From an uncultured delta proteobacterium (lineage in GTDB: Bacteria; Desulfobacterota; Binatia; DP-6): a DNA stretch of 64,000 nucleotides. Shown here one piece after another: positions 33,859 to 64,000 of this stretch. Every line of letters starts with the position of its first letter. Within the stretch, counting starts at the first letter, position 1. Location of the stretch: assembly GCA_963815115.1 (NCBI GenBank), contig CAWFFN010000007.1, forward strand, positions 960,001 to 1,024,000, in the 5' to 3' direction. Both the position numbers and the translations under genes were made by a program. The notes below the pieces were generated by a model. That model searched no databases. It was not told the origin of the DNA and saw nothing but the letters and a program-made list of their open reading frames with translations.

Positions 33859-36000
33859 TCAGCCCGCGGCGGCCACCGGCGCGGCGTCGATCGCGAGCCA
33901 GGGCGGGTCGGCCTCGCCCTCGGAGCCGCTGAAGACGAACGTGTCGTCTTCCCGCGAGAAGCCGTTCGACGGCAGGAAGTCGTGGCAGGGCGCATTGTGC
34001 GGCGTCACGACGAGGCGCGTGAGGAGCGCTTCGCCGTTTCGCCTCAGCACGCGCTTGATGTGGTTCATGACGGCGCGCTCGATGCCGTAGCCGAACACGC
34101 GGCAGCTCAGGACGAACACGGGAATCTCCATCCCGCGGGCGGTCCGCCGGGCCACCGCGATGCAGACGGTGCCGTTCGAGCCGAACCGGTCCGACGCGGA
34201 CGCGAGCAGGATCGTCGTCGCCGGGTCCTCGTGCCAGCCCTTGACCTCGGCGAACGTCGTCCGGCTGGCCTGCAGGTTGAACTGGTTGGTGCGGTTGACC
34301 AGCTCCGCGACGCGCTTCAGATCGGCGGCGTCGGCCTCCCGGATCTGGACCCGGAGCTCGAGATTGGCCAGCAACTCCCGCTCGTCCTCGGCCGAGGCGC
34401 GCGTCAGCAGCTCACTTCGCTGATGGTACTGGCGGTACATCTCCGTGCGGTCCGTTCCGCCCGACTCGAGTAGACCGGCCCACAGCTCGAGCCGGCGCCA
34501 CGCCCGCTCGGACGTGGCGTCCAGGGTGACGATGCCGGGGACGCCCTGCGCCACCATCGCCCGCTCGTCCGGGCGATCGTCGATGAAGACGAAATCCTTC
34601 GCCTTCAGGTTGAGGCTCTCGGCGATCCGCTTCGTGTTGCGCACCTTCGAGTCCCAGTTGATCTCGCGGTGGACGAAGTCGTCCTCCCGGAGCAGCCCGC
34701 CGGCGAAGTGGACCTTGTCGGGGTCGTTCTTCGAGTTGACCGCCAGCACCACCCCCTTCCGCTTGAGCGCGACGAGCACGCGCTGCCGGTCCAGGTGGTG
34801 TCGCACCGCACCTTCGCCGATCACGCCATCCCAGAGCGTGTTGTCGAGATCGCACACCACGAGCTTCTTCTTCATCAGGTCGAGCACGACCGCGACGACG
34901 TCCACGTAGACGTCGGCCAGCAGGCGCCCGAGCATCGCCGGATGCTGGTACTCGGCGGCGTGCAGATAGCGGCCGAGGCGGGCCTCGCCGTGGGCACGGA
35001 TCCAGGAGGTCTCGTCGAGGACGTGCAGATGCTCGAAGGTCTCCCGGTTGAGCGTCTCGACCGCGGCCGCCACCTGCCGGTTCAGGACGGCGGCCAGGCG
35101 GCGGCGGCCCGGCGAGGTCGCGATCCGTCGCAGCGTACTGCGCGCGGATCCGTCCGAGCGGATCACCTGGGCCGTGTTGTGCACGATCACCGGACACTCG
35201 AAGCGCTCGGCGAGCAGGGCCAGCGTCGGCATCACCTGCGCGAAGGCTTCGCTCCCCACGGCCCGTGCCTGCCACGGTCCCGACGCGGCGGCGCGAAGAT
35301 GGTGGAGCGGCTCGAGGGAGGGCACGAACTCGTAGGTGAACGGGCTGTAGAACACCGCGTGGTACTGCGCCGGATCGAGTGCACCGATCTCGCGGCGAAG
35401 CTGGGCCGGGTTCTTCGAGGTGGCGAAGGTGGGGACGAGCGTGATGCCTTCCGCCGCCAGCGCCGGCTGGGCGAACGTGACGATGTCGAGATACAGACAG
35501 TCGCCGACCAGGAGGACGCGCGCCTCGCGCTCCCCTTCGGCGAGCACCGCGGCGTAGGCACGCTCCAGGACGTCGTCCAGGGCGGCCTTCTCGGCCGCGT
35601 CGAGCTGGACGTCCAGGACGTCGTGGAAGACCCGCTTCTCGTCCTCGACGACGCGCTTGCGGAACGCGCTGCGCTCGGCGCCCTGGAGGGGGTCGTAGTG
35701 CAGCTGCTTGAGCTTCTCTCCGGTGAAGAGGTGCTCGTAGAGCGCGTCGCCGGTCTCGAATCGGAGCGCCAGGTAGTCGACCAGGGGTCGCTTCTCGGCG
35801 TCCAGCACGAATTCCACCCCCCCTTCGGCCACCATCCTCGTCGTGCGTTCCCACTCCGCCACGACGTCGTAGAGCCGCTCGCTCAGTCGCTCCCGGTTGT
35901 CGGCCAGGGCGCGCGCGAGGCGAGGCCTGGCGACGACGCCTGCGGATCCGCCGCCGCGGCCGTCACGGATCCCTTGTGAGCGACAGGAAAGCGTGGCCAT
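33859..36000 (-). CDS. FkbH-like HAD-IIIC glyceryl-transferase/phosphatase with long N-terminal SGNH-like region
   Basis: VCDLDNTLWDG, NSKN, FIDD, RTNQFN, LSCRV; upstream VLLVGDC...QHP. Confidence 0.88.
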   Translation of the reverse strand: MATLSCRSQGIRDGRGGGSAGVVARPRLARALADNRERLSERLYDVVAEWERTTRMVAEGGVEFVLDAEKRPLVDYLALRFETGDALYEHLFTGEKLKQLHYDPLQGAERSAFRKRVVEDEKRVFHDVLDVQLDAAEKAALDDVLERAYAAVLAEGEREARVLLVGDCLYLDIVTFAQPALAAEGITLVPTFATSKNPAQLRREIGALDPAQYHAVFYSPFTYEFVPSLEPLHHLRAAASGPWQARAVGSEAFAQVMPTLALLAERFECPVIVHNTAQVIRSDGSARSTLRRIATSPGRRRLAAVLNRQVAAAVETLNRETFEHLHVLDETSWIRAHGEARLGRYLHAAEYQHPAMLGRLLADVYVDVVAVVLDLMKKKLVVCDLDNTLWDGVIGEGAVRHHLDRQRVLVALKRKGVVLAVNSKNDPDKVHFAGGLLREDDFVHREINWDSKVRNTKRIAESLNLKAKDFVFIDDRPDERAMVAQGVPGIVTLDATSERAWRRLELWAGLLESGGTDRTEMYRQYHQRSELLTRASAEDERELLANLELRVQIREADAADLKRVAELVNRTNQFNLQASRTTFAEVKGWHEDPATTILLASASDRFGSNGTVCIAVARRTARGMEIPVFVLSCRVFGYGIERAVMNHIKRVLRRNGEALLTRLVVTPHNAPCHDFLPSNGFSREDDTFVFSGSEGEADPPWLAIDAAPVAAAG

Positions 36001-36156
36001 CCGCTGCAACCCTAAAGGACGAACTCTAGCACGGGAATGGGTCGGCGGCCCGCGGGCCCCGCGAGTGCACGTGCCGGGGCCGAGCCTGTATCATCGCCGC
36101 CGGTGTATCCGTCGGTTCGAGACCATGGACCACCCGGCGCGCTCGAGCCGGTACTC

Positions 36157-37377
36157 GTGGCAGCCCAGCCGCGCTGGGGGGCCGTCAGCCGCAACGTCGT
36201 CCTGCTCGGACTCACCAGCCTGCTCACGGACATCTCCTCGGAGTCGTTGAGTGCGGTGCTCCCGCTGTACTTCATGTTCGAGCTCGGCATGACGCCGCTG
36301 CAGTTCGGGCTGCTCGACGGCCTGTACCAGGGCTCCAGCGCGCTCGTCCGGGTCGCCGGCGGCCTCGTGGCGGATGCCGGCAGCCGCTACAAGCCGGTCG
36401 CGCTGGTCGGCTACGCCCTGTCGGCGTTCTGCAAGCTCGGCCTCCTCGTCGTGGGGTCGGCCTGGGCTCCGATCGCCTCCCTGCTGATGATCGACCGGCT
36501 CGGCAAGGGACTCCGGACCGCGCCGCGTGACGCCCTGATCACCCTCAGCAGCGAGCCGTCGCGTCTCGGCGAGGCGTTCGGCGCCCATCGGGCCATGGAC
36601 ACCGTCGGGGCGGTGCTGGGACCCATCCTCGCCGTGCTGGTGCTGGCAGCGGCGCCGGGGGCCTACGACGCGGTGTTCGTCATCAGCTTCGCCGTCGCCC
36701 TGGTCGGTCTCGCGGTCCTCGCCCTCTTCGTCGAGAACCGGAGCGATCCGCATGCCCTCGCGACGCCCGGGCCGCGGCCGCACGTCCGCCTGCGCGCCGC
36801 CTTCGCCAGCCGGCGCTTTCGCGCTCTGGTGGTCGCGGGTGGAATCCTCGGTCTGCTGACCGCCAGCGACGCGCTGATCTACCTCTTGCTGCAACGACGC
36901 GGCGCCGTCCCGATCACGCTCTTTCCCCTGTTGTTCGTGGGCACGGCCGTGGTGTATCTGCTGCTCGCGCTGCCCGTCGGACGTCTGGCGGACCGCTGGG
37001 GGCGCCACCGGGTGTTTCTCGCCGGCCATGGACTGGTGCTCGGCATCTACGTGCTCCTGCTCACCTCCACCCTGCCCGCCACGGGAATCGCGGCGTGCGT
37101 CGGGTTGCTCGGGGCGTACTACGCCGCGACCGACGGCGTCTTGTCGGCGCTCGCCAGCAGCGTGCTCGAGAAGGAACAGCTCACCACCGGCCTGGCGGTC
37201 GTCAGCACCACGACGGCGGTGGCGCGGCTGCTGGCATCGTCGCTCTTCGGCGCCGTGTGGAGCTGGCGGGGACCGACCGATGCTCTCGCGGCCTTCGGCG
37301 GGGGACTCCTCGTCGCCGCCGTCATCGCAGCCGGCCTGCTACGCGTGAGCCGCCCGTGGGTGGCCGCTCCGGAGTGA
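36157..37377 (+). CDS. MFS transporter
   Basis: SLLTDISSE, DRLGKGLRTAPRDALI, AFGAHRAMD, GRLADRWGR; about 12 TM helices. Start uncertain. Confidence 0.9.
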   Translation: MAAQPRWGAVSRNVVLLGLTSLLTDISSESLSAVLPLYFMFELGMTPLQFGLLDGLYQGSSALVRVAGGLVADAGSRYKPVALVGYALSAFCKLGLLVVGSAWAPIASLLMIDRLGKGLRTAPRDALITLSSEPSRLGEAFGAHRAMDTVGAVLGPILAVLVLAAAPGAYDAVFVISFAVALVGLAVLALFVENRSDPHALATPGPRPHVRLRAAFASRRFRALVVAGGILGLLTASDALIYLLLQRRGAVPITLFPLLFVGTAVVYLLLALPVGRLADRWGRHRVFLAGHGLVLGIYVLLLTSTLPATGIAACVGLLGAYYAATDGVLSALASSVLEKEQLTTGLAVVSTTTAVARLLASSLFGAVWSWRGPTDALAAFGGGLLVAAVIAAGLLRVSRPWVAAPE

Positions 37378-41722: not shown

Positions 41723-42940
41723 CTAGCGCGACGTGTCCGCGGGGACTGCGCTCCGCGAGGCCGCGTGCCGCGCACTGAGCCACAGCAGCCAGCCCAGGAA
41801 TACGAGACAGATGGCGCTCCGCCACTGCCCGAGCAGCGGGATGCCGAGCTGGCAGATCAGCCGGGAGGGGATGAAGAAGAGGCCCAGCAGCACGGCTACC
41901 ACCAGGCCGGCGCCGGGGCGGCCCCGGAGATGGAGCGTCAGGGAGACGGCCAGGGGTGCCAGGTACACGGCGTCGAGGTCGTGCCCGTAGACGATCGTCA
42001 GGGTGATCAGGGGAAGCAGCGCGGGCACGTCGTCCTCGCAGATGCGGTCCCTGAACCACCAGAGGATCGCCGTGAGCATGATCCCGGCGACCGTCAGGTC
42101 CAGCGCCGGCCCTCCGGCCGCGGCGATCAGGCTCGGGAGACCGACGACGAAGCAGGAGCCAAGGAGATTCGGCAGGTGCGTCTTGTAGTCCGCGACCGCG
42201 CCCAGCCACGCCTTCATCTCCGTGATCGGGCCGTGCAGCAGGAGCGGATACGCCATCAGCAGGCCGGCCACGACGCCCGACACCACGATCATCCGCCAGC
42301 GGCGCTCGAGCAGGAACCACAGCAGGGGAAGCATCAGGAGCTGCGGCTTGATGCTCGCGATCGCCAGGCAGACGCCGGCCAGATCCGGCCGGCGCTTGCG
42401 ATCGAGATACCACGCGCCCTGGAGCGCGGTCGCTCCGACCAGCGATATCTGTCCGAGCCACAGCGTCTGGATGGTGAACGTCGAGAACGCGAACAGCGCC
42501 GGGAAGTACCAGATGACGCTTCGAGACGCCGGCAGCAGTCCCGGCGTCACCGGCTCCCACGCCATGCGGGCGGTCAGCCATCCAAGCAACGCGAGCGCCA
42601 GCAGATCGATCACGTGCACCAGACGCATCGCGGTGCTCTCGCTCAGGAGCGCGAGCCCCATGTAGAACGGCGCGGCGACGGGCGGGCTGGCGAAGGCCGG
42701 CAGGTAGGGATCTTCGCGCGGGAAGTGGCGGTCGAGCGACGACCGGTCGTACGGGCTCTCTCCGGCCAGCCAGCTGCGGCCCGCCGCCTGGAACACGGCG
42801 AGGTCCATGGCCCAGACCCCGTGCCGCGCGACACCGAGAATGCCGAAGCCGGTGAGCGCGCTCAGAGCGATCGCCAGCACGAGCGGTCGCGCCCACCGCT
42901 GAAGCGCGGCGCCGCGGGGAATGCGAGCGCCGGAGGACAT
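41723..42940 (-). CDS. GT87/DUF2029 family GT-C glycosyltransferase (paralog 1)
   Basis: MDLAVF...GESPY, FASPP, WLGQ, SIKPQ; polytopic. Confidence 0.82.
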   Translation of the reverse strand: MSSGARIPRGAALQRWARPLVLAIALSALTGFGILGVARHGVWAMDLAVFQAAGRSWLAGESPYDRSSLDRHFPREDPYLPAFASPPVAAPFYMGLALLSESTAMRLVHVIDLLALALLGWLTARMAWEPVTPGLLPASRSVIWYFPALFAFSTFTIQTLWLGQISLVGATALQGAWYLDRKRRPDLAGVCLAIASIKPQLLMLPLLWFLLERRWRMIVVSGVVAGLLMAYPLLLHGPITEMKAWLGAVADYKTHLPNLLGSCFVVGLPSLIAAAGGPALDLTVAGIMLTAILWWFRDRICEDDVPALLPLITLTIVYGHDLDAVYLAPLAVSLTLHLRGRPGAGLVVAVLLGLFFIPSRLICQLGIPLLGQWRSAICLVFLGWLLWLSARHAASRSAVPADTSR

Positions 42941-43134
42941 CACGTCGACGGGATCCGCACCAGCCTGGGCCCTCTATCGTGGACCCGGGATTCTCGCCAG
43001 CCTGTCGACGAGGACGATCGGCCACGCATGACCTCGACCCGCCGGCAGCGCGTTGCGCGCACCCCGGTCGTGCCGTAGATGCAGGGAGCCACGGCTCCGC
43101 GCGCGCCGGGCGCAGCCTCGATCCGCAGGAGACG

Positions 43135-43905
43135 ATGTCGCCATCGATCGATCCACCCCGCCTCTCGCACGCGACGTGGCAACACCCGGCGTTCGCGCTC
43201 ACCGCCGATCAGGACTGGGCGCCCGCCTGGGCTTCCGAGCAGCTCCTCGCAGCCGCCGCGGCGCTCGGAATGCCGCTGCACGTGTTCCGGACCAACCCCT
43301 GCCCCGTGCTCGACGAGGCCGCCGCACGAGGTCGAATCACCCAGGGATGGCATCCGAACTTCCTGCCGGGCTCGGACCACGGCGACACGCCCGAGCAGGT
43401 GATCGCCTATTGCCGCGCGCATTTTCCCGGCTGCCGCACCGCCAGGGCGCACTGCTTCATGGAGCACACCATGGCCTGGGACGCGCTCGCCGCGGCGGGG
43501 GTCATCGCCGATTCCCAGCTTCCGACCTACTTCCAGGAAGGGCTCGTCCCGCTCATGCATGCGTCGGGCATCTGGCGGCTTCCGGTCTACTTCGAGGACG
43601 ACATCTTCTTCCGCTCGTTCCCGCTCGATCTGCCTCTGGACCGCATCCAGGCGACCCTCTTCGGGCCCGGGCTGAAGGTGCTCAACTTCCATCCCACGTT
43701 CGTCGCCGCGAACGTGCCCTCGCCGGCCTACTACGCCGAGATCAAGACCCGCTGGTTCTCGCCCGCCGGCGACCACCGGAAGCTGGTCCATCCCGGCCGG
43801 GGCACCAGGGCGGTGCTCGAGGAGCTGGCGGCACTGGTCACGTCGAAGGGGTTCGCCTTCGAATCCTTCGAGGCCCTGGTCGACCGCCTCCCCGCAGTCG
43901 GCTGA
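43135..43905 (+). CDS. WbmS-like polysaccharide/NDP-sugar deacetylase (cytoplasmic)
   Basis: AGGAG RBS; TADQDWAP, GWHPNF, RAH, YFEDD, NFHP; no signal peptide. Confidence 0.78.
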   Translation: MSPSIDPPRLSHATWQHPAFALTADQDWAPAWASEQLLAAAAALGMPLHVFRTNPCPVLDEAAARGRITQGWHPNFLPGSDHGDTPEQVIAYCRAHFPGCRTARAHCFMEHTMAWDALAAAGVIADSQLPTYFQEGLVPLMHASGIWRLPVYFEDDIFFRSFPLDLPLDRIQATLFGPGLKVLNFHPTFVAANVPSPAYYAEIKTRWFSPAGDHRKLVHPGRGTRAVLEELAALVTSKGFAFESFEALVDRLPAVG

Positions 43906-43924
43906 TCGCGCACGATCCCGGGGA

Positions 43925-44932
43925 TCAGGCCCTGATCGCGAGGACGTGAGTGGTCTCGGGAAAGTGCACCAGCGTGTCGGCACGCGTCGCGAAGAACTCG
44001 TCCACCGCCTTCTTCACGCCGGAGAAGGGAACCTTCGCGCCCCGCGGCAGCTCGGGTTCCTCGGCGCAGTAGTCGTGAAACAGCATCATGCCGCCGGGCT
44101 CGAGCTTGGGGTGGAAGAACCGGCAGCATTCCATCGCCGGCTCGTACAGATCCGCGTCGTAGTAGACGAAGGCGAAGCGCTCGTCCCGCACGGCCGCCAG
44201 CGTGTCCGCGAAGAATCCCGGATGAATCCGGACGTTCGGGAAGGGCGCGAGGTAGCTTCGCACCTTGGGGAGAGTCGTGTCGGCGAACTCGCTGCGTCGC
44301 TGCGAGGGGTCGTGCGCCGACAGATCCGGAAACCCCGCGAAGCTGTCGAAGAGGCGAAGCGTCCGCCGACCGAGGATGTCACCGCCCGCGAGCAGGCTGC
44401 AGAAGGCATTGCCGCCCTGGAACACGCCGAGCTCCGCGACGTCGCCCGCGAGGTTGGCCCGATCGAGGTGCTTGAGCAGCTCCAGGTAGAGCCAGGTCCC
44501 GGCAAAGCCGCTCAGGTTCTGCGGATGGGTGTAGATTGAGAGCACGCGCGCCGTCGCGAACAGCTCGGGCGACGCCTCGATCCCCAGCGAGGCCTTCAGG
44601 CGGTGGCGATAGCTCTCGAAGTGCAGGACGGAGCAGTCGATCCAGCCGTCGGGGAAGCTCAGGCCGAATGCTGCGAGGCGGTCCCCGATCGCCCGGATGG
44701 CCGCCCCCGTATAGGCGAAGATGATCACGCGATACTCGGCGAGATTCACCCGATCGAGCTCCGCGGGCGACACGATGGGGATGCCGAACAGCGTCGTGCC
44801 CTGGGATTCCGGGCTGTCGTCGACGATGAACTCGAGGTCGAGCGGGGTCTCGCGTAACGTGAGCAGGGTGGCAAGACCCGCTCCGTAGCCGATCAGCTTG
44901 CTGCGCTTGAGCGCGTCGAGATCGATGTCCAT
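43925..44932 (-). CDS. TylF/MycF/NovP-type O-methyltransferase with N-terminal Rossmann-like domain
   Basis: GDVAELGVFQG, FDSFAGFP, GFFADTL, DADLYEP, FHDY, GVKKAVDEF; N-terminal GYGAG...FIVDD. Confidence 0.88.
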   Translation of the reverse strand: MDIDLDALKRSKLIGYGAGLATLLTLRETPLDLEFIVDDSPESQGTTLFGIPIVSPAELDRVNLAEYRVIIFAYTGAAIRAIGDRLAAFGLSFPDGWIDCSVLHFESYRHRLKASLGIEASPELFATARVLSIYTHPQNLSGFAGTWLYLELLKHLDRANLAGDVAELGVFQGGNAFCSLLAGGDILGRRTLRLFDSFAGFPDLSAHDPSQRRSEFADTTLPKVRSYLAPFPNVRIHPGFFADTLAAVRDERFAFVYYDADLYEPAMECCRFFHPKLEPGGMMLFHDYCAEEPELPRGAKVPFSGVKKAVDEFFATRADTLVHFPETTHVLAIRA

Positions 44933-44934
44933 GC

Positions 44935-45684
44935 CTACTTGATGAACTCTTCCGGAGGCACCTTCTTGACCACGCGCGCCGGATTCCCGAGGACGAGCGT
45001 CGCCTCGGGCACGTCCTGGAACACCACCGCGCCGAGCGCGACCACGGCCTCGCGTCCCACCGTGATGCCCGGATGCAGGGAAGCACCCGTCCCGACCCTC
45101 GCCCCCGCCCGGATCACCGGCCCCCGGCTCTCGCAGGGAATCGCCCGGCGGTGGCTGATCACCGTGCCCGATGCGGTACAGACCCGGGCTCCGATGAAGA
45201 CGTCGTCCTCGACGACCGTGTTCTCCGAGAGATACGAGGCGGTGAAGATGAGGCACCGGCTCCCGATCGTGACGTGGAACTCCAGGTTGACCCCGCGCCC
45301 CACCACGCTCTTCGCACCGATGGTGCAGTTCTCGCGGACCGAGGCCAGGTCGCCGAGGAAGGCCTCCTTTCCGATCCGGCATCCCGCGTACACGATCGCG
45401 CCGGTACCGATCAGCGCGCCGTCCTCGATCGTCGTCTGATTCCCGGTCGCCTGGGCTCCGAGGGTCGCGACCGCCGAGCTGTGCGGCCGCTTCCCGATCA
45501 CGGCGTGGTCCTGGACGGTCACGCCGCTGCCGATCGCGGTGCCGGGAAAGATCACGACGTGGCTCCCGATGCGCGTCCCGGCACCGATCCGGACGGCATC
45601 GTGGATGACCGCGAAGTGCGCGAACGACACGGACTCGTCGATCGTCGCCTCGGGCGAGATGACGTTGCCGTCAGACGGGGGCAC
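44935..45684 (-). CDS. Left-handed beta-helix (hexapeptide) N-acyltransferase
   Basis: Extended hexapeptide repeats; C-terminal VFQDVP...GNPAR. Confidence 0.88.
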   Translation of the reverse strand: MPPSDGNVISPEATIDESVSFAHFAVIHDAVRIGAGTRIGSHVVIFPGTAIGSGVTVQDHAVIGKRPHSSAVATLGAQATGNQTTIEDGALIGTGAIVYAGCRIGKEAFLGDLASVRENCTIGAKSVVGRGVNLEFHVTIGSRCLIFTASYLSENTVVEDDVFIGARVCTASGTVISHRRAIPCESRGPVIRAGARVGTGASLHPGITVGREAVVALGAVVFQDVPEATLVLGNPARVVKKVPPEEFIK

Positions 45685-45707
45685 CTCGCCGCCTTCCTTC
45701 CGGGAAC

Positions 45708-45953
45708 TCAGCTCGACCCGCCGGGGTCCCGTCCCTGCCGCAGCAGCTCCGCGCGCAGCGCGGCGACGGCGGTGAGGGACGGAATGTCATCGGACGAGAA
45801 GTGCACGTCGAACGCCTCCTCCACGGCCAGGATCAGCGCAAAGTGACGGAGCGAATCCCACTCCGGGGTGTTCTCCATCGAGGTGCTCTCCTGCACCAGC
45901 TCGGGAGAGACCTGGAGGGCCTCCGCCACCGTCGCGACCAGCTTGTCGCTCAC
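45708..45953 (-). CDS. Acyl carrier protein
   Basis: GTG overlaps the FkbH stop; EWDSLRHFALILAVEEAFDV with the phosphopantetheine Ser. Confidence 0.9.
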   Translation of the reverse strand: MSDKLVATVAEALQVSPELVQESTSMENTPEWDSLRHFALILAVEEAFDVHFSSDDIPSLTAVAALRAELLRQGRDPGGSS

Positions 45954-47671
45954 TGATCGCCTCGCCAGCTCACACTGAAGAGGTCCTGGCGCGGGCCATC
46001 GACCGCCCCCGCGAGCTCGAACCGCCGGCTGCCGTCCCGCTGCTCCTCCAGGAGGCGGAAGCCCGCCCGCTCGAGAAACCCGCCGGCCACCGCGTTGCGT
46101 GGTCCCGGCACGAAGGTGGCCCGGATGGCCTCGCGGGAACCCCGCCGGACGCGATCGACGCAGGCGGCGAGGAACGCGTCCTCGAAGCTCCGGCCGATGA
46201 CCCGGCAGCTCATCATGAAGCTGTCGAGCTCCCAGCGAGCATTGGCCTGCTGGTGCTCGAGGATCGCGAGTGCGATCCAGCCGTGGTCGGTGAATCGATC
46301 CTTGAGCGAAGCGGCGATCACCATCCAGCTCGGATCGTTCAGGACGCGGGCCATCTCCGCCTCGGTATACCGCTTGAGGGTGAGATTGAACTGGTTCGTC
46401 TTCTGGGTGAGCTGCGCGCTCCGCGCCAGCAGCGAGGCGTCGTTCACGCTGAAGACGGCCTCCATGCGCAGGGATCGCAGGAACTCCTCGGGGCTGCCGC
46501 ACTCCTGCAACGCGGCGGCCGTCTGCGCCCGGGCGCGGTACTGCTCGGTCTTGGCGCGGTCCTCGCTGGTGACGTTCGCCTTGTAGAACCATCGCCACGC
46601 CAGCTCCTCGCCGAAGGCCGGGAGACCGGCGGGATCGGACGGGAATTCCGGGACCGTGACCTCGGGAAGCGCGGATCGCACCTGCTCTCGCTCGACGGGA
46701 TTGTCGTCCACGAACACGAAGCTGTCCAAGCCCACCCCGAGGGTGGCGGCGAGCCGGCCGAGCCCCTCCGACTTCGACCCCCAGCCCACGTGGCGGGCAG
46801 CGATACGATCCGGCCGCAGCACCATCTCGGGGCGGGTCGCAAAGACCTCGTCGACGTCCTCCGGGTTGTTGCGCGAGCACAGGGCCACGAGCACGCCCCG
46901 GCTCTCGAGCGCTGCGACGGTGCGCTGGAACTCCGTGTAGGCGCGTCCGATGCCGTCTCCGCCGAGACGGATGCCGCCCACACCATCCTCACCGACGATC
47001 CCGCCCCAGAGCGTGTTGTCGCAGTCGAGCGCCAGCACCTTCTTCGTTCGCCCCAGGACCGCGTTCCAGTGGGACGCGAGCCGCTCGGCGAGGGCCTTCA
47101 TGCCTCGAGCCGAGAGCGGCATGCGGGCCAGGAAGTCCATCCGGGCGTCGTAGGTGACGCCCGCGCCCAGCGCGTGGGTCACGCGCTCGCGCTCGAAGAG
47201 CGACCAGCCCGCTGCTTCCCGGCACCGGCGCCGCACCTGGGCGTTGAACACCCCGGTCGCGACCGCCACGGGATCCAGCTCGGAATCGTTCAGGCCGGCG
47301 ACGGCACCCGGGAACTCCACCTCGGCGGTGGACAGGATCCAGCTCACCTCCGGATGCCGCGCGGACAGCGAGGAGATGGCCCCGAGAAGGAATTCCGCCG
47401 CCTGGGTGCCAGCCTCCTCGGGAGCGATCTCGGGACGGGGTCCCGTGAGCTGCCGCTCGAAGAGGTCGCGCGCCTCCGGAAAGACGACGGCCGCGCGGGG
47501 CGGGTCGCTCTCGAAGTCCTCGTCTGCTCCCGACCACAGCCGGAGCTCGCGATCGAACCCGCAGACCACGATCTCGGGCTTCAATCCGTAGCTCTGGAGC
47601 GCTTTCCGGAAGACCGGGGCGAACAGCTCCCACGAGGCGCGGCCGACGACGAAGATGCGCCCATCGCTCAT
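45950..47671 (-). CDS. FkbH-like HAD-IIIC glyceryl-ACP synthase
   Basis: ALDCDNTLWGG, CSRN, FVDDNPVER, KTNQFNLT, MSCRV. Confidence 0.92.
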   Translation of the reverse strand: MSDGRIFVVGRASWELFAPVFRKALQSYGLKPEIVVCGFDRELRLWSGADEDFESDPPRAAVVFPEARDLFERQLTGPRPEIAPEEAGTQAAEFLLGAISSLSARHPEVSWILSTAEVEFPGAVAGLNDSELDPVAVATGVFNAQVRRRCREAAGWSLFERERVTHALGAGVTYDARMDFLARMPLSARGMKALAERLASHWNAVLGRTKKVLALDCDNTLWGGIVGEDGVGGIRLGGDGIGRAYTEFQRTVAALESRGVLVALCSRNNPEDVDEVFATRPEMVLRPDRIAARHVGWGSKSEGLGRLAATLGVGLDSFVFVDDNPVEREQVRSALPEVTVPEFPSDPAGLPAFGEELAWRWFYKANVTSEDRAKTEQYRARAQTAAALQECGSPEEFLRSLRMEAVFSVNDASLLARSAQLTQKTNQFNLTLKRYTEAEMARVLNDPSWMVIAASLKDRFTDHGWIALAILEHQQANARWELDSFMMSCRVIGRSFEDAFLAACVDRVRRGSREAIRATFVPGPRNAVAGGFLERAGFRLLEEQRDGSRRFELAGAVDGPRQDLFSVSWRGDQ

Positions 47672-48072
47672 CTCTCGACCCATTCGATGAGTCCCAGCGC
47701 GTGGTAGAGGACGAAGGCCATGCGTCTGCCCTCGAAGGCCTGCGAGGGCACCGGCGGGCGCACGACGATGCCGCCACTCGATCGCGCCCCCTTGATCATC
47801 TCGTCGAAGTTGTCACACCGGAAGCACAGGTGATCGGGGTGTCCGCTGTCTGCTCCGGCGGTCTTGATGCGAGAGCCGGCACAGGGTTCCACGAGCTCGA
47901 TGCGGCCGCCCTGGAAGGTCAGGAAGGCGACCCGGACCTGATCCGCGCTCACCAGCGTTGCGGGCAGCTCCACTCGCGCACCCAGCATCTCCCACCTCCG
48001 GGTCGACGCTGCCATGTCCGTCACCAGGTAGGCTGTGTGATGGAGCTCCGGGTTCTCGGGAGCAGGTACCAT
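47668..48072 (-). CDS. VOC family protein (methylmalonyl-CoA epimerase-like)
   Basis: LHHTAY, RIELVEP, DHLCF, LIEWVE: the four metal-ligand positions H/E/H/E are retained. Stop overlaps the FkbH start. Confidence 0.85.
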   Translation of the reverse strand: MVPAPENPELHHTAYLVTDMAASTRRWEMLGARVELPATLVSADQVRVAFLTFQGGRIELVEPCAGSRIKTAGADSGHPDHLCFRCDNFDEMIKGARSSGGIVVRPPVPSQAFEGRRMAFVLYHALGLIEWVER

Positions 48073-48224
48073 TCTCGACCGAAATTATCGCTCGGGAGGG
48101 GGCATGTGTCGAGCGACCGACACGACGGGACGGTGAGCGCGCCAGTGCACGCGGCGACGAGCAGCGGAGCACTGCGTCCGCCGTCGTCGCCGCACGCACA
48201 TCGCGCGAAGCGACTCGAAGCAGA

Positions 48225-56503: not shown

Positions 56504-56853
56504 GCAAAAGCCTTATTGAATGGCGGCGTTGCCAGTGCATACGCGCATGATTGATCCGCAGCACCGCGTTTCCGCCAGGGATGGGCCCCGCCACCGTCAC
56601 GGCAGGGTTGGCAGCGGACACCGCCACTGCCATAGACAGCCCCTCACCGGGGACGGTATGAGGGCCCCGCTCCGCGGCTCGCATGCCGGGGAGCACGTGG
56701 CGCAATCACCCTCACCCGAGTGCTCGAACCCTCGATTTCCTCGCTCGGTCCCAGCCAGCCGAGCGACCGCGCGGCCCGGCGAATCGCCCCGGCAGCGATG
56801 GCCGCCGACCAGGCGGGGCCGGGGCGGGCCCCGGTCGCGGGGGGCACCTGACG

Positions 56854-58347
56854 ATGTCGCGCACCACCGCTCGCGCCCTCGTCGCCGGAGCCTTCGCGCT
56901 CTACGTCCTGCTTCACCTCGTCACCGTCGCGCGCTCGCACATTCCCTGGTTCGACGACACGTTCTTCGCCAGCATCGGCGAGACGCTGCGAAGGACCGGC
57001 GAGTTCAGGCTGACCGTCTCGCCGCTCTGGTTCCCCAAGCCCGTCTACCTCTACGGTCCCATCTACTTCCTCCTGGTCGCCGGTTCGTTCGCCACGCTCG
57101 GCTTCGGCGTGCTGCAGTACCGCCTGACCGGCCTCGTCGCCGCCTTCGTCCTGCTCGCCGTCGCCTACCGCATTCTCCAGCGCGAGGGCGTCGAGCGACG
57201 CATCGCCCTCGGGGCGTGCGTGCTCATGGCGCTGGACCCGATCCTCCTGGAGATCCTCCGCATCGGCCGGATGGACCTCCTGGCGCTCCTCTTCGTCCTG
57301 CTCGCCTACCTGCTGTTGGTGGACGCGAGACAGACCACGGGACGCGCGGCCCTGCTGTATGCCGCCGGCTCGGGTGCCCTCGCGTCCCTCGCGGTCCTGA
57401 CGACCCCGCGACCGGGCTACGCCCTCGTCCCGCTGGGGCTCATCCTGCTACATCGGTGCTGGACCGGCCCGATCGGGTCGCGCGTGGCCCAGCTGCTCGC
57501 CTGGGGGGCTGGCTTCGTCCCGCTGTGCATCGTCTGGCTGGTCTACGCTTTCGGCAGCCTGCCGGGACTCCTCGCCTACTTCTCGGAATTCGCCGACACC
57601 TATGCGGGTACGGGCCTCGCGACCGTCTCGATCCAGAAGCCGATTCTCGCGATCCTGCTCGTCCTGACGCTGCTCACGCTGTTCAGGGATCCGCGCCGCC
57701 TGCTGAACGAGCTCCCGGTCTTCCTCGGACTGGGGATCGTGCTCTTCTTCCTGTTCGTCAAGAACAAGGGAACCTTCGGAGGCGGCTACGCGATCCTCCT
57801 CATCCCGTTCGAGTACATGGCGCTGGGCTGGCTGATCGCGAATTGCCCTCCCCTCTCGGGCCCACGGTCCCGTCGAGCCGTCCAGGCCACCTCGTTCGTC
57901 CTGCTGCTCCTGCTGAACGGCGGCGCGTTCCTGGCGATCGTCGCATCGGACTTTCTGCTCTGGCCCGCTCTCGACCCGAGCGCGGCCCAGAGCCTGATCG
58001 TCGAGAAGATCCCGCCCGGATCGAAGGTGGTGGGCGACGACAAGTTCTACTTTCTCGTGACCCGCGCCGGTTCCGACTTCCAGTACCTCGAGCGGGGCGG
58101 GACGGTCGCCGAACGGGTGAGCTATCACAAGGACACGTTCGGCTTCGACTACGTCGTCACGGCCCTGGACGAGAGCTCGGAGATCCTGAGCGCCTACCTC
58201 GCCGCCACGAATCTCGTGAAGGTGGGCACCATCGATCACCCGAGCGTCAGCGCGCTGACCAGGTACCCGCTGTTCGCCCGCGGCAAGTTCATGCTCTGGG
58301 TCTTCACCACCAACTACGGCGGGACGCTCTACAAGCGGGTCCGTTGA
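56854..58347 (+). CDS. ArnT/PMT-like (GT83/GT39) GT-C glycosyltransferase
   Basis: PWFDD after TM1, YGPIY, RIGRMD, TTPRP; polytopic with a C-terminal periplasmic domain. Confidence 0.8.
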   Translation: MSRTTARALVAGAFALYVLLHLVTVARSHIPWFDDTFFASIGETLRRTGEFRLTVSPLWFPKPVYLYGPIYFLLVAGSFATLGFGVLQYRLTGLVAAFVLLAVAYRILQREGVERRIALGACVLMALDPILLEILRIGRMDLLALLFVLLAYLLLVDARQTTGRAALLYAAGSGALASLAVLTTPRPGYALVPLGLILLHRCWTGPIGSRVAQLLAWGAGFVPLCIVWLVYAFGSLPGLLAYFSEFADTYAGTGLATVSIQKPILAILLVLTLLTLFRDPRRLLNELPVFLGLGIVLFFLFVKNKGTFGGGYAILLIPFEYMALGWLIANCPPLSGPRSRRAVQATSFVLLLLLNGGAFLAIVASDFLLWPALDPSAAQSLIVEKIPPGSKVVGDDKFYFLVTRAGSDFQYLERGGTVAERVSYHKDTFGFDYVVTALDESSEILSAYLAATNLVKVGTIDHPSVSALTRYPLFARGKFMLWVFTTNYGGTLYKRVR

Positions 58348-58360
58348 CCGCGTCCGACCG

Positions 58361-59596
58361 TCACAGCCTGGACGGAGTCAGCCCTCGCCGAGCTCCGAGT
58401 CCGATGCCCGCCGTTCCCCGCCTGAGGCTCATGGCCATGAGCCAGCCCACGGCCACGCACAGCGCGAGGACGCGAAGATGGAGCAGGAGCGGACTGACAT
58501 AGGGTTCGAGCAGGCTGTTCGGCAGGGTCACGATCAGCATCAGGCCGAGCGCCAGCACCGATGCAGCGGCTCGTTCGTGCACGTGGCGCCAGAACGCCGG
58601 GATGAGGGGGATCAGGGCGGCGATGTCGTAGCCGTGGGCGAAGCCGAAGAGCAGCGACATGCCGACCAGGATGGGCAGCACGTCGTCGTCGACGACGCTG
58701 GCCCGCGACCACCAGAACCACCCGAGGATGAGCAACGCCAGCGGCAGGAGGACCGGTGCGTCGACTCCCGCCACGAAGAGCAGGTTGCGCAGCCCGAAGA
58801 CCATTCGCGATCCGAGGGTGTTGTACGAACCGGCGCTGTATCGCCACGCCGCAGCGGACCAGTCCGACATCAGCTGAACGGGGCCGCTGATGAGGAGCGG
58901 CACCGCGGCCAGCGCCGCGACGCCCAGCGCGGCGGCCGCGAGCACCCGCCACCGGCGTTCGAGGACCAGCCACAGCATCGGGAGCGCACTCACCTGCGGC
59001 TTGATGGTGGCGATGGCGAGGAGCAAACCGCCGATCAGCCATCGATCGCGCCGGGCCAGGCGCCAGCCCAGCATGAGCGCCAGGATCACGATGAGCGTCG
59101 TCTGGCCGGCCCAGATGACGAACGCGGTGGACGGGTTGCCGAGGACGAGGGCGGGGATCGCCCACCACGCCGCATCCCCGAGTCCTGCCCGGCTGCGGCG
59201 TCCCGGATCGCGGGCGCATCGCAGGCTGAGGGCGGCGAGCCCCAGGGCCGCGGCGAGGTTGAGGCCGGTCATGAGCGCCCGGGCACCGACCGGCGACCAC
59301 GCCGCGAGCAGCATGCATAGGGGCGCGATCTGCGGCGGGTAGGCGAAGTCGTAGCGCGCGACCGCTTCCGCGAGCCACGGGTCGGCGGGATGCACCGACC
59401 CCGGCACGTAGGCGTTGAGGCCCTCGCGCCAGTAGAGCCCCGCCAGGTACAGGAAGCGCATATCCAGATTGGTCTGCGCCAGTCCGCCGTGTCCCGCCCC
59501 GAAGAGGCCGAGGGCGACCGTCACGCCGACGGCGCACAGGAGGATCACCGACCCGAAGCGCGGGTCATGCATGCGCGAATGTCGAACCGACGTCAT
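58361..59596 (-). CDS. GT87/DUF2029 family GT-C glycosyltransferase (paralog 2)
   Basis: LDMRFL...GLNAY, FAYPP, WAGQ, TIKPQ, HGYD. Confidence 0.83.
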   Translation of the reverse strand: MTSVRHSRMHDPRFGSVILLCAVGVTVALGLFGAGHGGLAQTNLDMRFLYLAGLYWREGLNAYVPGSVHPADPWLAEAVARYDFAYPPQIAPLCMLLAAWSPVGARALMTGLNLAAALGLAALSLRCARDPGRRSRAGLGDAAWWAIPALVLGNPSTAFVIWAGQTTLIVILALMLGWRLARRDRWLIGGLLLAIATIKPQVSALPMLWLVLERRWRVLAAAALGVAALAAVPLLISGPVQLMSDWSAAAWRYSAGSYNTLGSRMVFGLRNLLFVAGVDAPVLLPLALLILGWFWWSRASVVDDDVLPILVGMSLLFGFAHGYDIAALIPLIPAFWRHVHERAAASVLALGLMLIVTLPNSLLEPYVSPLLLHLRVLALCVAVGWLMAMSLRRGTAGIGLGARRGLTPSRL

Positions 59597-59670
59597 GCTC
59601 CTCGAACGGCACCCTGACGCTCGCGCTGCTGCCGGCGAGCGCGCAGGGATCACGCTGAGCGTGGTGCTCT

Positions 59671-60630
59671 TCAGGCCGACCAGGCAGCGGGAGCGGTCTG
59701 CAACACGTGCCCGGCGGCGGTCTTCGCCTCGATGATGTACCGCGGCCGGCGTCGGGACTCGTCGAGAGCGCGCCACAGGTACTCGCCGAGCACGCCCATC
59801 ATCACCATCTGGATGCCACCCACCAGCAGGACCACGACCATCAACGACGACCAGCCCTGCACGGGAGCGCCGCGCAGGGAGTTGAGGATCACCAGGGCCG
59901 CGTAGACGAAGCCCGCGCAGGCCACGGCGAACCCGACGTACGACATGAACCGGATCGGCACGTAGCTGAACGACGTGACGGAATCGACGACGAGCTTCAG
60001 CTTCTTCTTGAGGCTCCACCCCGACCTGCCGTGCAGACGGGCTCCTTTGTCGTAGGTGATGGTGGCCTGCCGGAATCCCATCCAGGTGATGAGGGCGAGG
60101 ATGCTGGCGTTGCTCTCGCTGAACCGGGAGAAGGCTTCGACCACGTCGCGGTCGAGGAGGAAGAAGTCGGCACCCGTGGCCGGCATCTCCTTCATGTCGA
60201 CCACGCTTCGCATCAGCCAGTAGTACAGGCGCGAGAACCCGACCGTCGTCGCCTTCTCGCCCTCACGAAGAGCCCGGGCCGCCCACACGACCTTGACGCC
60301 CTCCTTCCATTGCTCGAGCAGCTGCGGGATCACCTCGGGGGGATCCTGCAGGTCCGCGGCCAGGGCCGTCACGCAGTCCCCCCGCGCCTCGTGCAGGCCG
60401 CACGTCACCGCGGCGTGCGCGCCGAAGTTCCTGGCGAAGCGCAGCCCGCGCACCCGCCGGTCGCGCTCGGCGAGCCGGGTGACGACGGCGAACGTCGCGT
60501 CCTGGGAATGGTCGTCCACCACGACCCACTCCCAGTCGAGCCCGAGGGACTCCATGGTCGCGCGGATGCGCTCGTAGAGAACGGGCAGGTTCGCCGCTTC
60601 GTTGTACGCCGGAGTGACGATGGAGATCAT
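59671..60630 (-). CDS. GT2 polyprenyl-phosphate glycosyltransferase (GtrB/ArnC-like)
   Basis: SIVTPAYNE, VDDHS.D, RNFG, ADLQDPP, two C-terminal TM helices, GEYLWR...RRP.Y. Confidence 0.92.
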   Translation of the reverse strand: MISIVTPAYNEAANLPVLYERIRATMESLGLDWEWVVVDDHSQDATFAVVTRLAERDRRVRGLRFARNFGAHAAVTCGLHEARGDCVTALAADLQDPPEVIPQLLEQWKEGVKVVWAARALREGEKATTVGFSRLYYWLMRSVVDMKEMPATGADFFLLDRDVVEAFSRFSESNASILALITWMGFRQATITYDKGARLHGRSGWSLKKKLKLVVDSVTSFSYVPIRFMSYVGFAVACAGFVYAALVILNSLRGAPVQGWSSLMVVVLLVGGIQMVMMGVLGEYLWRALDESRRRPRYIIEAKTAAGHVLQTAPAAWSA

Positions 60631-60646
60631 GGGCACCTCGCTCGAT

Positions 60647-61789
60647 TCAGCGCGCGCCACAGGCGCGCCGCAACCCGTCCGCGACCTGCTCCTGCTCCTG
60701 CCGCGTCATCTGCCCATACAGCGGCAGGATGATGCAATGGTCCTGGGCCGCCTCCGAGTGCGGCAGCGCGTGCCGCGCCGCGCTGCCCTCGTAGCTCGGC
60801 TCGCGATGGCTGCACATGACGCCGCGCCGGGTCGCGATGCCCTGGTCGAGCATCCGCTGCATGACCTCGCGCTGATCGCACCGAGCGGGCAGCCGCACGC
60901 AGAAGCTCTGCCAGTTGCTCCGGGCCCAGTCGGGCTCTCGCGGCTGGATCAGACCGGGCACGTCGGCCAGCAGCGCCCGGTAGCGCTCGACCAGCGCCCG
61001 GCGGACGGAGACCACCTCGGGCAGCCGCTTCAGCTGCTCCCGGCCGACGGCCGCCTGGATGTCGGTCATGCGGTAGTTGTATCCGAGCACCGGGTAGGAC
61101 TCGAAGATGACCGTGTTGGCGCCGTGTCGTACCGTGTCGGGGACGCTCATCCCGTGCTGTCGCAGCAGCCTGCAGCGCGCATCCCAGTCCGCGTTGCCGG
61201 TGGTGATCATGCCGCCATCACCCGTGCTCATCACCTTGCGGGGGTGAAACGAGAAGCAGGCGATGTCGCCGTGCGGGCGGCCGATCTTCTCCCACCGGCC
61301 GCTCCAGCAGATCTCGCTGCCGCTGGCGCACGCCGCATCCTCGATCACGGCGAGTCCGGCCCGACGCGCCACCGGCAGGATCGCCGCCATGTCGCAGGGC
61401 ATCCCCATCTGGTGCACGCACAGGACGGCGCGCGTGCGATCCGTCAGCGCGCCCTCGAGCTGCGTCGGGTCGATGTTGAAGGTGTCGGGCTCCACATCGA
61501 CGAAGATCGGCGTCGCACCGCAGTAGCGGATGGCGTTCGCCGTGGCGATGTAGGAGTGGCTCACCGTGACGACGTCGTCGCCGGGACCCACCCCCGCGGC
61601 CAGGAGCGCCAGGTGCAGCGCCGTGGTACAGCTCGACACCGCACACGCGTGCTCGGCGCCCACGAAGGCCGCGAACTCGCGCTCGAAGGCGGCCACCTCC
61701 GGTCCCTGCGTGATCCAGCCGCTCAGGATGGCGCGGCCGGCCGCCGCGACCTCCCGCTCGTCCATCACGGGTTTGATGATCGGGATCAT
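60647..61789 (-). CDS. DegT/DnrJ/EryC1/StrS aminotransferase
   Basis: SSCTTALH, IEDAAC, FSFHPRK, GDGG, GYNYRM. Confidence 0.95.
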   Translation of the reverse strand: MIPIIKPVMDEREVAAAGRAILSGWITQGPEVAAFEREFAAFVGAEHACAVSSCTTALHLALLAAGVGPGDDVVTVSHSYIATANAIRYCGATPIFVDVEPDTFNIDPTQLEGALTDRTRAVLCVHQMGMPCDMAAILPVARRAGLAVIEDAACASGSEICWSGRWEKIGRPHGDIACFSFHPRKVMSTGDGGMITTGNADWDARCRLLRQHGMSVPDTVRHGANTVIFESYPVLGYNYRMTDIQAAVGREQLKRLPEVVSVRRALVERYRALLADVPGLIQPREPDWARSNWQSFCVRLPARCDQREVMQRMLDQGIATRRGVMCSHREPSYEGSAARHALPHSEAAQDHCIILPLYGQMTRQEQEQVADGLRRACGAR

Positions 61790-62757: not shown

Positions 62758-62776
62758 GTCGAGGTTTTTCCGCCTT

Positions 62777-63427: not shown

Positions 63428-63437
63428 CCCGGGCCGA

Positions 63438-64000
63438 TCACGCGGCCCGGGCGAGGCGGCGCACGGCGCCGCACACCGTCTCGCATTGCGCCGCGGTCAG
63501 CTCGGGGAACATGGGCAGGGACAGGACCTCCCGCGCCGCGTGCTCGGAGGCGGGAAACCGGCCGGCGCGATAGCCCAGGTCGGCGAAGGCGGGCTGGAGA
63601 TGCACCGGGATCGGGTAGTGAACGCCGGTGTGGATGCCGTCGCGCTGGAGCGCGTCCTGCCACTCCTGCCGGCTACCGGTGCGAACGGCATAGATGTGGT
63701 AGACGTGGCGCATGGCGGTCGCCGGCGGCAGCGTCTCCACGCCGCCGTCGATCAGCAGCTCGTCGTAGCGCGCGGCGGCGGCACGGCGGGCCTCCGTCCA
63801 GTCTTCCAGGTGGCGCAGCTTCACGCGCAGCACCGCGCCCTGGATCCCCTCCATGCGATAGTTGTAGCCCTTCAGCACGTGCTGGTACTTCTTCTCGGCG
63901 CCCCAGTCGCGCAGCATCCGGAGCGTGCGCGTGTACTCGGGGCTATCCGTCACCACGATCCCGCCCTCGCCGTACGCGCCGAGGTTCTTGCCGGGATAGA
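63438..64000 (-). CDS. Second DegT family aminotransferase (3' part; 5' end beyond window)
   Basis: YPGKNLGAYGEGG, GYNYRM, HYPIPVH, LSLPMFPEL. Confidence 0.93.
   Translation of the reverse strand, partial: YPGKNLGAYGEGGIVVTDSPEYTRTLRMLRDWGAEKKYQHVLKGYNYRMEGIQGAVLRVKLRHLEDWTEARRAAAARYDELLIDGGVETLPPATAMRHVYHIYAVRTGSRQEWQDALQRDGIHTGVHYPIPVHLQPAFADLGYRAGRFPASEHAAREVLSLPMFPELTAAQCETVCGAVRRLARAA

Follow-up and report, generated by a model that had tools for sequence, protein, structure and literature searches.

N-Glyceroyl and O-methylglyceroyl groups are found on the pseudaminic acids and other amino sugars of flagellins, S-layers and lipopolysaccharide (LPS). Both N-glyceroyl and di-O-methylglyceroyl forms of pseudaminic acid have been described, and the genes behind them are reported as unassigned (PMC5378307, PMC3068675). 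The N7 of pseudaminic acid is the N-glyceroyl site in Tannerella forsythia and V. vulnificus, and the 2017 T. forsythia study calls the genetic and biochemical basis of glyceroyl groups ‘a major challenge’ (PMC5378307). The pseudaminic acid (Pse) of C. jejuni NCTC 11168 bears a methylated glyceroyl N-acyl group (PMC3068675), and another report describes cj1302 as an FkbH-domain gene next to cj1301, which is ‘annotated as an epimerase’ (PMC7099621). Here we analyze a 64,000-nt stretch of DNA from an uncultured delta proteobacterium (Binatia; contig CAWFFN010000007.1, positions 960,001 to 1,024,000 of the forward strand; hereafter ‘the window’), in which genes for a vicinal oxygen chelate (VOC) metalloenzyme, an FkbH-like enzyme, an acyl carrier protein (ACP), a left-handed β-helix (LbH) acyltransferase and a TylF-type methyltransferase form a cassette that converges with a gene for a WbmS-like putative sugar deacetylase. 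By comparing this cassette with other FkbH loci, we show that the FkbH-ACP module has a true and conserved partner in the VOC, which is regularly found with it and translationally coupled to it. The resemblance to the C. jejuni flagellin locus lies in an FkbH-domain gene beside an ‘epimerase’ gene (cj1302 and cj1301) in a glycan-decoration setting, and the difference lies in NeuB, for which no gene was found in the window. ACPs, a methyltransferase, an LbH protein and FabH are also among the neighbours in the C. jejuni locus.

In the window, which has ~70% G+C, genuine genes were told from shadow open reading frames (ORFs) by their third-position G+C, and profile searches together with the reading of the gene junctions confirmed the layout given in the initial annotation, namely five co-directional minus-strand genes and a convergent WbmS-like gene (Table 1). 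The two 4-nt overlaps that had been reported can be seen as an ATGA common to the VOC stop and the FkbH start (47671/47668; if FkbH began instead at the ATG at 47683, the two genes would overlap by 16 nt) and as a GTGA common to the FkbH stop and the ACP start (45953/45950). The ACP and LbH genes are spaced by 23 nt, which hold the stretch GGAAGGAAGG, the LbH and methyltransferase genes by 2 nt, and the stop codons of the methyltransferase gene and the convergent WbmS-like gene by 19 nt. The H/E/H/E metal ligands of the VOC, the DSL of the ACP, and the DxDxT (residues 216–220) and SCR (residues 488–490) motifs of FkbH, on which the first description of these proteins had relied, are all present.

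FkbH proteins of this size are very common, a search giving 6785 matches at E ≤ 1e-3 among 8000 scored candidates, and 80 FkbH loci from species-representative genomes were compared with the window, making 81 loci altogether. When the window proteins were used as tblastn queries, the ACP was found in 51 of the 80 loci, the VOC in 27, the LbH protein in 12, the TylF-type methyltransferase in 4, and WbmS and the GT87-family glycosyltransferase in 0. All-against-all clustering of the ORFs, which is more sensitive than tblastn, placed an ACP in 76, a VOC in 36 and the LbH cluster in 19 of the 81 loci, and thereby bore out the neighbourhood conservation that the initial annotation had proposed to measure, with VOC beside FkbH in several phyla. 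Every VOC-positive locus contains an ACP (36/36), and the record titles of these loci name Acidobacteriota, Gemmatimonadota, Actinobacteria, Thermotogae, Nitrospirae, Bacteroidota, Bacillota, Gammaproteobacteria and ‘delta proteobacterium’, that is, at least nine phylum-level labels. VOC and FkbH share a strand in 35 of the 36 loci and lie on opposite strands in L077. The two genes overlap or are ≤60 nt apart in 21 loci, as measured to the longest FkbH ORF, and seven further VOC genes overlap an over-extended FkbH ORF, some of the gaps being ~180–250 nt by the tblastn coordinates. VOC lies 3’ of FkbH with a 4-nt overlap in four loci and 3’ of the ACP in one, and distant VOC genes stand 493 nt (L005) and 1033 nt (L082) from FkbH. 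The window’s own genome of 6.9 Mb contains six matches to the VOC profile, and on this scale a chance VOC-FkbH adjacency is expected at far below 1%. Since VOC nevertheless stands beside FkbH in 36 of the 81 loci, the arrangement in the cassette is not due to chance, and its retention across phyla supports a functional link between VOC, FkbH and ACP, as judged from gene order.

Neighbours of FkbH were named by Pfam and NCBIfam searches with cluster representatives. LbH proteins of the window’s cluster abut FkbH or ACP in about a dozen of the 19 loci that contain them, in several phyla, and an AAC(3)-like N-acetyltransferase adjoins FkbH in ~10 loci. The VOC co-occurs with LbH in 8 loci, with a PseH-type GNAT in 5, with the AAC(3)-like protein in 2 and with a ~375-aa protein named c12 in 12. 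The genes run in the order NeuB-GNAT-ACP-FkbH-VOC-PseG-like in L034, L045, L061 and L016 (Clostridia/Thermotogae). The only GNAT of these to be tested, that of L034, scored as a PseH equivalog (101 bits, cut-off 93), and PseC- and PseB-like genes come next in that locus. PseH acylates the amine that is destined to be the N7 of pseudaminic acid, and by their gene content these four operons are candidates for the synthesis of N7-glyceroyl pseudaminic acid. In Bacteroidota, the FkbH loci hold GT4, Bac_transf, LbH, a second ACP, a short-chain dehydrogenase/reductase (SDR), KASIII and DegT. The addition of KASIII, a FabG-like SDR and a second ACP in L024, L025, L033, L052 and L075 suggests that the glyceryl starter undergoes chain extension there. 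Acidobacterial loci contain sulfotransferases, a UDP-glucose dehydrogenase and the c12 protein 3’ of the ACP. The association of ACP and VOC is kept in a setting of glycan genes while the acyltransferase that goes with it differs between loci (LbH, PseH-type GNAT, AAC(3)-like or other), and FkbH-ACP(-VOC) therefore has the look of a portable module that donates acyl groups for amino-sugar acylation. In addition, an ACP-VOC pair occurs without FkbH or sugar genes in genome G006 (locus L130), and this pair, the four types of transferase partner and the presence of ACP in all VOC-positive loci imply that the VOC goes with the acyl donor and not with the acceptor sugar. A donor module that plugs into varied N-acyltransferases would be a testable candidate for the glyceroyl decorations that have no assigned genes.

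We also noticed that the order FkbH-ACP-c33, in which c33 is a protein of ~375–400 aa, recurs in L046, L056 and L064, and also in L030, and that a Polysacc_deac_1 deacetylase gene comes directly after c33 in L056 and L064 and farther on in L046. The c12 and c33 proteins may be new acyltransferases; these two, c162, c198 and a 323-aa protein of G006 gave no Pfam or NCBIfam match. The latter protein is encoded in the region of the ACP-VOC pair (G006:C10, L130 6597–11714), where a DUF1329/LolA-like gene is followed by genes for an ACP, a VOC (129 bits against the VOC profile), the 323-aa protein and an aldehyde dehydrogenase.

Glyceryl-ACP formation by FkbH/OzmB enzymes serves the methoxymalonyl-ACP, tetronate and lactate-starter polyketide pathways. 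The cassette shares with these systems an FkbH domain above the family cut-off, the DxDxT motif, the SCR cysteine and a dedicated adjoining ACP, but it lacks a polyketide synthase (PKS), an FkbI/FkbK dehydrogenase and a FabH-like tetronate enzyme, and it has glycan-gene neighbours and a VOC translationally coupled to FkbH. The cassette FkbH combines an N-terminal domain with a HAD-IIIC phosphatase domain and, at the C-terminus, an acyl-Cys domain, its residues 169–349 are matched by BF1531 (PDB 3slr) with 150 bits, and across 18 aligned relatives D216, D218, S488, C489 and R490 are invariant and T220 is kept in ≥90%. The profile scores of the ACP are weak (PP-binding 17.5 bits, under the Pfam cut-off; 22–30 bits with the NCBIfam models for ACP). 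From its family membership, FkbH is very probably a maker of glyceryl-S-ACP, which would dephosphorylate 1,3-bisphosphoglycerate, form glyceryl-S-Cys489 and hand the D-glyceryl group to the phosphopantetheine on Ser34 of the ACP. We ruled out the methoxymalonyl-ACP pathway (FkbG/H/I/J/K) because dehydrogenases of the FkbK and FkbI types are missing beside FkbH (none among the six assigned ORFs at 43.1–48.1 kb), and a polyketide or tetronate product because there is no KS or KASIII gene near the cassette. The description of the cassette as ‘PKS-free’ holds: the contig yields a single ketosynthase-like match, a fragment scoring 35 bits that lies 30 kb from the cassette (window 13085–13303), and the remaining 15 ketosynthase-like matches of the genome sit on other contigs.

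A second FkbH-domain protein of 716 aa is encoded 8 kb from the cassette (33859–36009, minus strand). It scores 207 bits with TIGR01686 and contains DLDNT and LSCRV, and its N-terminal ~380 aa gave no family match. It and the cassette FkbH are the sole FkbH matches in the 6.9-Mb genome, and a related genome, G003, has a 715-aa counterpart that is 36% identical to the cassette FkbH. An ORF located 5’ of this second gene (36012–36290, minus strand) was considered as an ACP and rejected, and the second FkbH has neither an ACP nor a transferase adjoining it.

For the transfer of the acyl group, the LbH protein is the probable outlet in the cassette. The solved proteins closest to it are QdtC (68 bits over residues 23–240), WlbB (63 bits) and FdtD (60 bits), which are NDP-amino-sugar N-acetyltransferases, and with which it has in common the LbH fold and, by prediction, the NDP-amino-sugar acceptor; the difference is that those enzymes take acetyl-CoA. 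No NCBIfam model scored above its cut-off for the LbH protein, the LpxA and LpxD models matching parts of it far under their cut-offs. From these comparisons, the protein is predicted to be a QdtC/WlbB-type N-acylase of an NDP-amino sugar, and on balance we expect that it would move the acyl group onto the amine of an NDP-amino sugar supplied by the DegT and SDR enzymes of the locus. Alternatively, LbH could be an ordinary acetyl-CoA-dependent N-acetyltransferase, and the glyceryl group could end up as an O-acyl group, in a lipid head group or in a small metabolite. The solved LbH relatives, which all use acetyl-CoA, would fit this possibility, as would the 32 of 81 loci in which all four transferase-like families are missing within 6 kb and the second FkbH protein of the window with its lack of an ACP or transferase. 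We consider it improbable in view of the close spacing of the LbH gene behind the ACP gene and ahead of the methyltransferase gene, the recurrence of LbH next to FkbH or ACP in several phyla, the separate NeuD-type acetyltransferase that the locus already has, and the position of the PseH equivalog ahead of ACP-FkbH in L034.

To place the VOC, we built a profile from 29 FkbH-linked VOCs and searched it against solved structures. Across the 29 proteins, no polar residue other than H12, E59, H81 and E130 is invariant. The best match was the ‘glyoxalase I’ of C. acetobutylicum (PDB 2qh0/3hdp; 144 bits), followed by human MCEE (72 bits), the methylmalonyl-CoA epimerases (MMCEs) of S. coelicolor (55–60 bits) and P. 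shermanii (45 bits), and E. coli glyoxalase I (GlxI; PDB 1f9z; 26.5 bits). Taken alone, the FkbH-linked VOC of C. sporogenes matched 2qh0 with 108 bits and the window VOC matched 3hdp with 37.6 bits at 23–26% identity. The AlphaFold2 (AF2) model of the window VOC (pLDDT 91.9) was aligned by Foldseek to 3hdp with a TM of 0.86–0.88 (rmsd 1.7), to MMCEs with a TM of 0.66–0.75, and to the domain-swapped E. coli GlxI with a TM of 0.39. Since the TM is high to 3hdp and the MMCEs and low to the domain-swapped enzyme, the modeled fold is of the one-chain, two-module MMCE/C. acetobutylicum-GlxI type. The C. acetobutylicum protein is thus the top match in both sequence and fold and has the same one-chain active site, but it is deposited and described as a glutathione-type glyoxalase I, and the window VOC is distant from it in sequence. 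The MMCEs (PDB 1jc4, 3rmu, 6wf6) share the fold type, the metal site and a class of substrate, acyl thioesters with an acidic α-proton.

Enzymes of the glyoxalase I class form a 2-hydroxyacyl thioester through a metal-bound enediolate. Glyoxalase I activity and a one-chain active site are reported for the C. acetobutylicum protein (PMC5412262), and a study of septacidin biosynthesis describes SepA, a VOC protein with only H/E/H/E that epimerizes the carbon adjoining a carbonyl with the metal-bound glutamates as the acid/base pair (PMC9978623). SepA resembles the cassette VOC in this ligand set and in its pair of metal-bound glutamates, and differs in being a domain-swapped dimer of the GloA2 type that acts on a 4-keto heptose, the cassette VOC being one-chain and linked to a carrier protein. 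From the neighbourhoods we think that the VOC probably acts on an ACP-bound acyl group. That it is specifically an epimerase is possible rather than probable, with epimerization at C2 as our leading guess. In such a reaction, the VOC would bind a divalent metal through H12, E59, H81 and E130 and chelate the thioester carbonyl and the 2-OH of glyceryl-ACP, so that an enediolate would form at C2; by analogy with SepA and glyoxalase I, the metal-bound glutamates would serve as acid and base, and the enediolate would most likely be reprotonated from the opposite face to give L-glyceryl-ACP.

The enediolate chemistry is shared by a second possibility, in which the VOC dehydrates or isomerizes glyceryl-ACP with loss of the 3-OH, giving pyruvoyl-ACP (enol-pyruvoyl-ACP) and an N-acyl group that would be pyruvoyl, lactoyl or, once reduced and methylated, 2-methoxypropionyl. 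Polyketide FkbH-DH-KR loading modules convert glyceryl to lactoyl, and FabG-like SDRs stand beside the module in 5 of the 36 VOC-positive loci (Bacteroidota). SDR/FabG genes are commoner in the VOC-negative loci (13/45), however, the window cassette has no reductase gene, and VOC proteins are not known to dehydrate, the VOC reaction types named in the SepA study being isomerase, epimerase and dioxygenase (PMC9978623), so we hold dehydration to be unlikely. True glyoxalase chemistry, either the detoxification of a 2-oxoaldehyde or the making of lactoyl-S-ACP from methylglyoxal and the holo-ACP thiol, would agree with the names of the nearest solved proteins, which are deposited as glyoxalase I/lactoylglutathione lyase, with the occurrence of the VOC clade far from FkbH, and with the ACP-VOC pair of G006. 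A detoxifying enzyme, though, would have no cause to be translationally coupled to FkbH across many phyla, FkbH would be redundant in 36 loci if the VOC alone loaded the ACP, and the canonical E. coli GlxI is remote in both score and fold, leaving this reading a slender chance. Equally slender is the idea that the VOC epimerizes a keto-sugar intermediate rather than the acyl group, as is done by SepA, which has the same H/E/H/E set and inverts C3 of a 4-keto sugar (PMC9978623): the SDR and DegT of the window imply a keto-sugar intermediate, and DegT is commoner in VOC-positive (9/36) than in VOC-negative (3/45) loci, but the VOC abuts FkbH or ACP rather than sugar genes and has four transferase families as partners, its relative in G006 lies beside an ACP without sugar genes, SepA has the domain-swapped fold, and the complete Pse operon of L034 requires no additional epimerase by the established pathway.

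Taking the steps together, our tentative reading is that the cassette supplies an acyl group and transfers it to an amino sugar of a surface glycan. A broader proposal, which at present we regard as doubtful, is that VOC-FkbH-ACP is a widespread three-protein module supplying a C2-inverted (L-) or C2-remodelled glyceroyl group with which amino sugars are N-acylated, at the N7 in the case of pseudaminic acid, that it is the missing genetic basis of N-glyceroyl and methylglyceroyl decorations, and that the VOC would be the first carrier-protein-dependent 2-hydroxyacyl-thioester epimerase. If the VOC is such a carrier-bound epimerase, this would be a new reaction for a well-studied superfamily and would explain how bacteria set the stereochemistry of antigenic glyceroyl groups, and ACP thioesters would count among the native substrates of the clade that contains the C. 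acetobutylicum ‘glyoxalase I’. In a literature search whose coverage left out most subscription journals, we found no description pairing FkbH with a glyoxalase; FkbH with lipopolysaccharide returned nothing relevant, FkbH with glyceroyl returned polyketide work only, and none of the 20 papers listed in a search for a glyceryl-ACP epimerase contained a glyceryl-ACP term. The sole link between FkbH and glycans that the search found is the sentence on cj1302/cj1301 in PMC7099621.

Several observations weigh against the epimerase module or limit it. VOC is missing from 45 of the 81 FkbH loci. Among 401 genomes of the same phylum, 71 have VOC matches at E ≤ 1e-22, and only three of the best 30 loci, the window included, have FkbH within 1.5 kb; because these loci are mostly without a nearby FkbH, the VOC clade is not exclusive to FkbH. 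The window VOC scores 28.9 bits with TIGR03081 (MMCE), far under the equivalog cut-off of 114.95, so that it is no orthologue of MMCE, for which contig C5 of the genome offers a better candidate (67 bits to the FkbH-linked VOC profile). The column of the Glu in PEHGV of human MCEE (strand 3), which we take to be one of the two catalytic bases of MMCE, is variable in the 29 VOCs, with Asp in the window’s clade, Glu in 3/29 (L017, L033, L034) and various residues in the rest, and since it is not conserved, a strict MMCE mechanism is disfavoured. The use of acetyl-CoA by the solved LbH relatives leaves adjacency as the tie between the LbH protein and the ACP, and the solved relatives of the methyltransferase are sugar O-methyltransferases, which speaks against glyceroyl as the methyl acceptor. 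WbmS-like genes were found in none of the 80 wider loci by tblastn; other deacetylases, namely two Polysacc_deac_1 clusters and PIG-L, lie 0.2–4.6 kb from FkbH in 19 of the 80, a raw count that has no background frequency for glycan loci in general beside it. Finally, FkbH has a match in 8 of 41 related genomes, so the cassette is an accessory glycan-decoration trait, which makes for a more modest result where the host organism is concerned. Of the pathway that the initial annotation had drawn from these genes, the gene identities, the glycan setting, the VOC-FkbH-ACP link, the LbH outlet and the methyl step gained support, and the epimerase role, the target of methylation and the acyl swap did not.

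The acyl swap would have the WbmS-like enzyme strip an N-acetyl group before the freed amine is re-acylated. LpxD, an LbH enzyme, takes its acyl group from ACP after the deacetylase LpxC has freed the amine, and the WbmS-like and LbH proteins could follow the same logic of deacetylation and then acylation. The WbmS-like protein matches WbmS (PDB 3hft) with 46 bits, the deacetylase activity of this family being the depositor’s naming, and its N-terminus is not hydrophobic. Its presence next to the cassette is limited to three genomes, all of one family. Given its absence from the wider loci on the one hand and the uncontrolled count of other deacetylases near FkbH on the other, we regard a prior deacetylation step as rather unlikely, though possible.

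The methyltransferase would add an O-methyl group to a hydroxyl of either the glyceroyl group or the sugar. Its PF05711 match spans residues 153–290, and SpnH, MycF and NovP match with 43–60 bits. With the AF2 model (pLDDT 90.7), Foldseek found NovP, MycF, SpnH and CalS11, the TMt to SpnH being 0.77–0.79. D196, D259 and D287, presumably the metal ligands of a TylF-type methyltransferase, are invariant among 24 sequences. The model has an extra Rossmann-like N-terminal domain (residues ~1–100), which may bind a nucleotide sugar; distant relatives combine PF22674 (C2185-like_N) at the N-terminus with TylF, and an Atlas match of this domain to C2185-like_N (0.83) is a lead only.

Two genomes of the same family were compared more closely. 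G001, of the same genus, keeps the full order MFS-GSDH-GT87-WbmS-methyltransferase-LbH-ACP-FkbH-VOC-giant protein, with cassette genes 71–94% identical to those of the window (WbmS-like 71%, LbH 94%). G010, of another genus, keeps the WbmS-like (79%), LbH (80%), ACP (68%), FkbH (69%) and VOC (76%) genes and the giant protein, but in place of a TylF-type gene it has a class I SAM methyltransferase gene (Methyltransf_23, 63.6 bits) between LbH and ACP. Nothing argues more strongly for a methylation step in the pathway than this replacement by an unrelated methyltransferase. In G001 (L093, G001:C12:78000-97900), FkbH, VOC, GT87 and the WbmS-like protein each align as two overlapping pieces in different frames, and these split genes are either frameshifted pseudogenes or assembly indels. 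The GT87 gene at 41723 is kept in G001 and not in G010, where an RmlC-like gene takes its place.

The genes that surround the cassette point to a glycan setting (Table 1). The Arn/Pgf-like set at 56683–63998, in which a PseC-like score of 310 bits stays under the equivalog cut-off, likely serves to make an N-acylated amino sugar, couple it to polyprenyl phosphate and move it out of the cytoplasm, going by gene content; the ArnC/PgfS-like GT2 would pass the sugar to polyprenyl phosphate and the GT-C enzymes would deliver it. The presence of two aminotransferases and two LbH proteins in one locus suggests a sugar with two differently acylated amines. In a consensus scan, two promoter-like sites were found in 5.4 kb against 0.1 expected, as consensus matches only.

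Table 1 Features of the cassette and its surroundings (window positions unless a locus is named)
Feature	Position	Strand	Remarks
VOC metalloenzyme	47668–48072	-	134 aa; Glyoxalase_4, 48 bits
FkbH-like enzyme	45950–47671	-	573 aa; TIGR01686 276.2 bits (cut-off 146.65); HAD-IIIC 57 (cut-off 35.75)
ACP	45708–45953	-	81 aa; WDSL with Ser34
LbH acyltransferase	44935–45684	-	249 aa; Hexapep, 87 bits
TylF-type methyltransferase	43925–44932	-	335 aa from ATG 44932; PF05711, 64 bits (cut-off 23)
WbmS-like putative sugar deacetylase	43135–43905	+	256 aa; PF22537, 101.6 bits (cut-off 27)
Promoter-like site TCGACA-17-GATAAT	48084–48112	-	12 nt 5’ of VOC start; consensus match only
GT87-family GT-C glycosyltransferase	41723–42943	-	PF09594, 73 bits; downstream side of cassette
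Secreted paralogue, 1058 aa	38442–41618	-	GSDH, DUF4082, PKD domains (Pfam)
Giant secreted protein, 2826 aa	48225–56705	-	upstream of cassette; related to 1058-aa protein by tblastn
PMT_2 GT-C	56683–58347	+	likely transfer gene
GT87-like GT-C	58361–59650	-	translation likened by eye to 41723 gene; no NCBIfam match
PgfS/ArnC-like GT2	59671–60660	-	PgfS 214 bits, ArnC 170; under equivalog cut-offs
DegT aminotransferase	60647–61780	-	sugar-supply gene
SDR	61786–62757	-	sugar-supply gene
NeuD/PglB/VioB-type LbH	62777–63496	-	NeuD_NnaD 158 bits; under equivalog cut-off
Second DegT	63438–63998	-	runs off window end
G010 Methyltransf_23 gene	L094 8347–9120	-	class I SAM methyltransferase

The giant secreted proteins could be glycosylated targets. 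We noticed on reading it that the 2826-aa protein has repeated Ig-like modules and a Cys-rich stretch, and the genes for the giant proteins hold the same position in G001 and G010.

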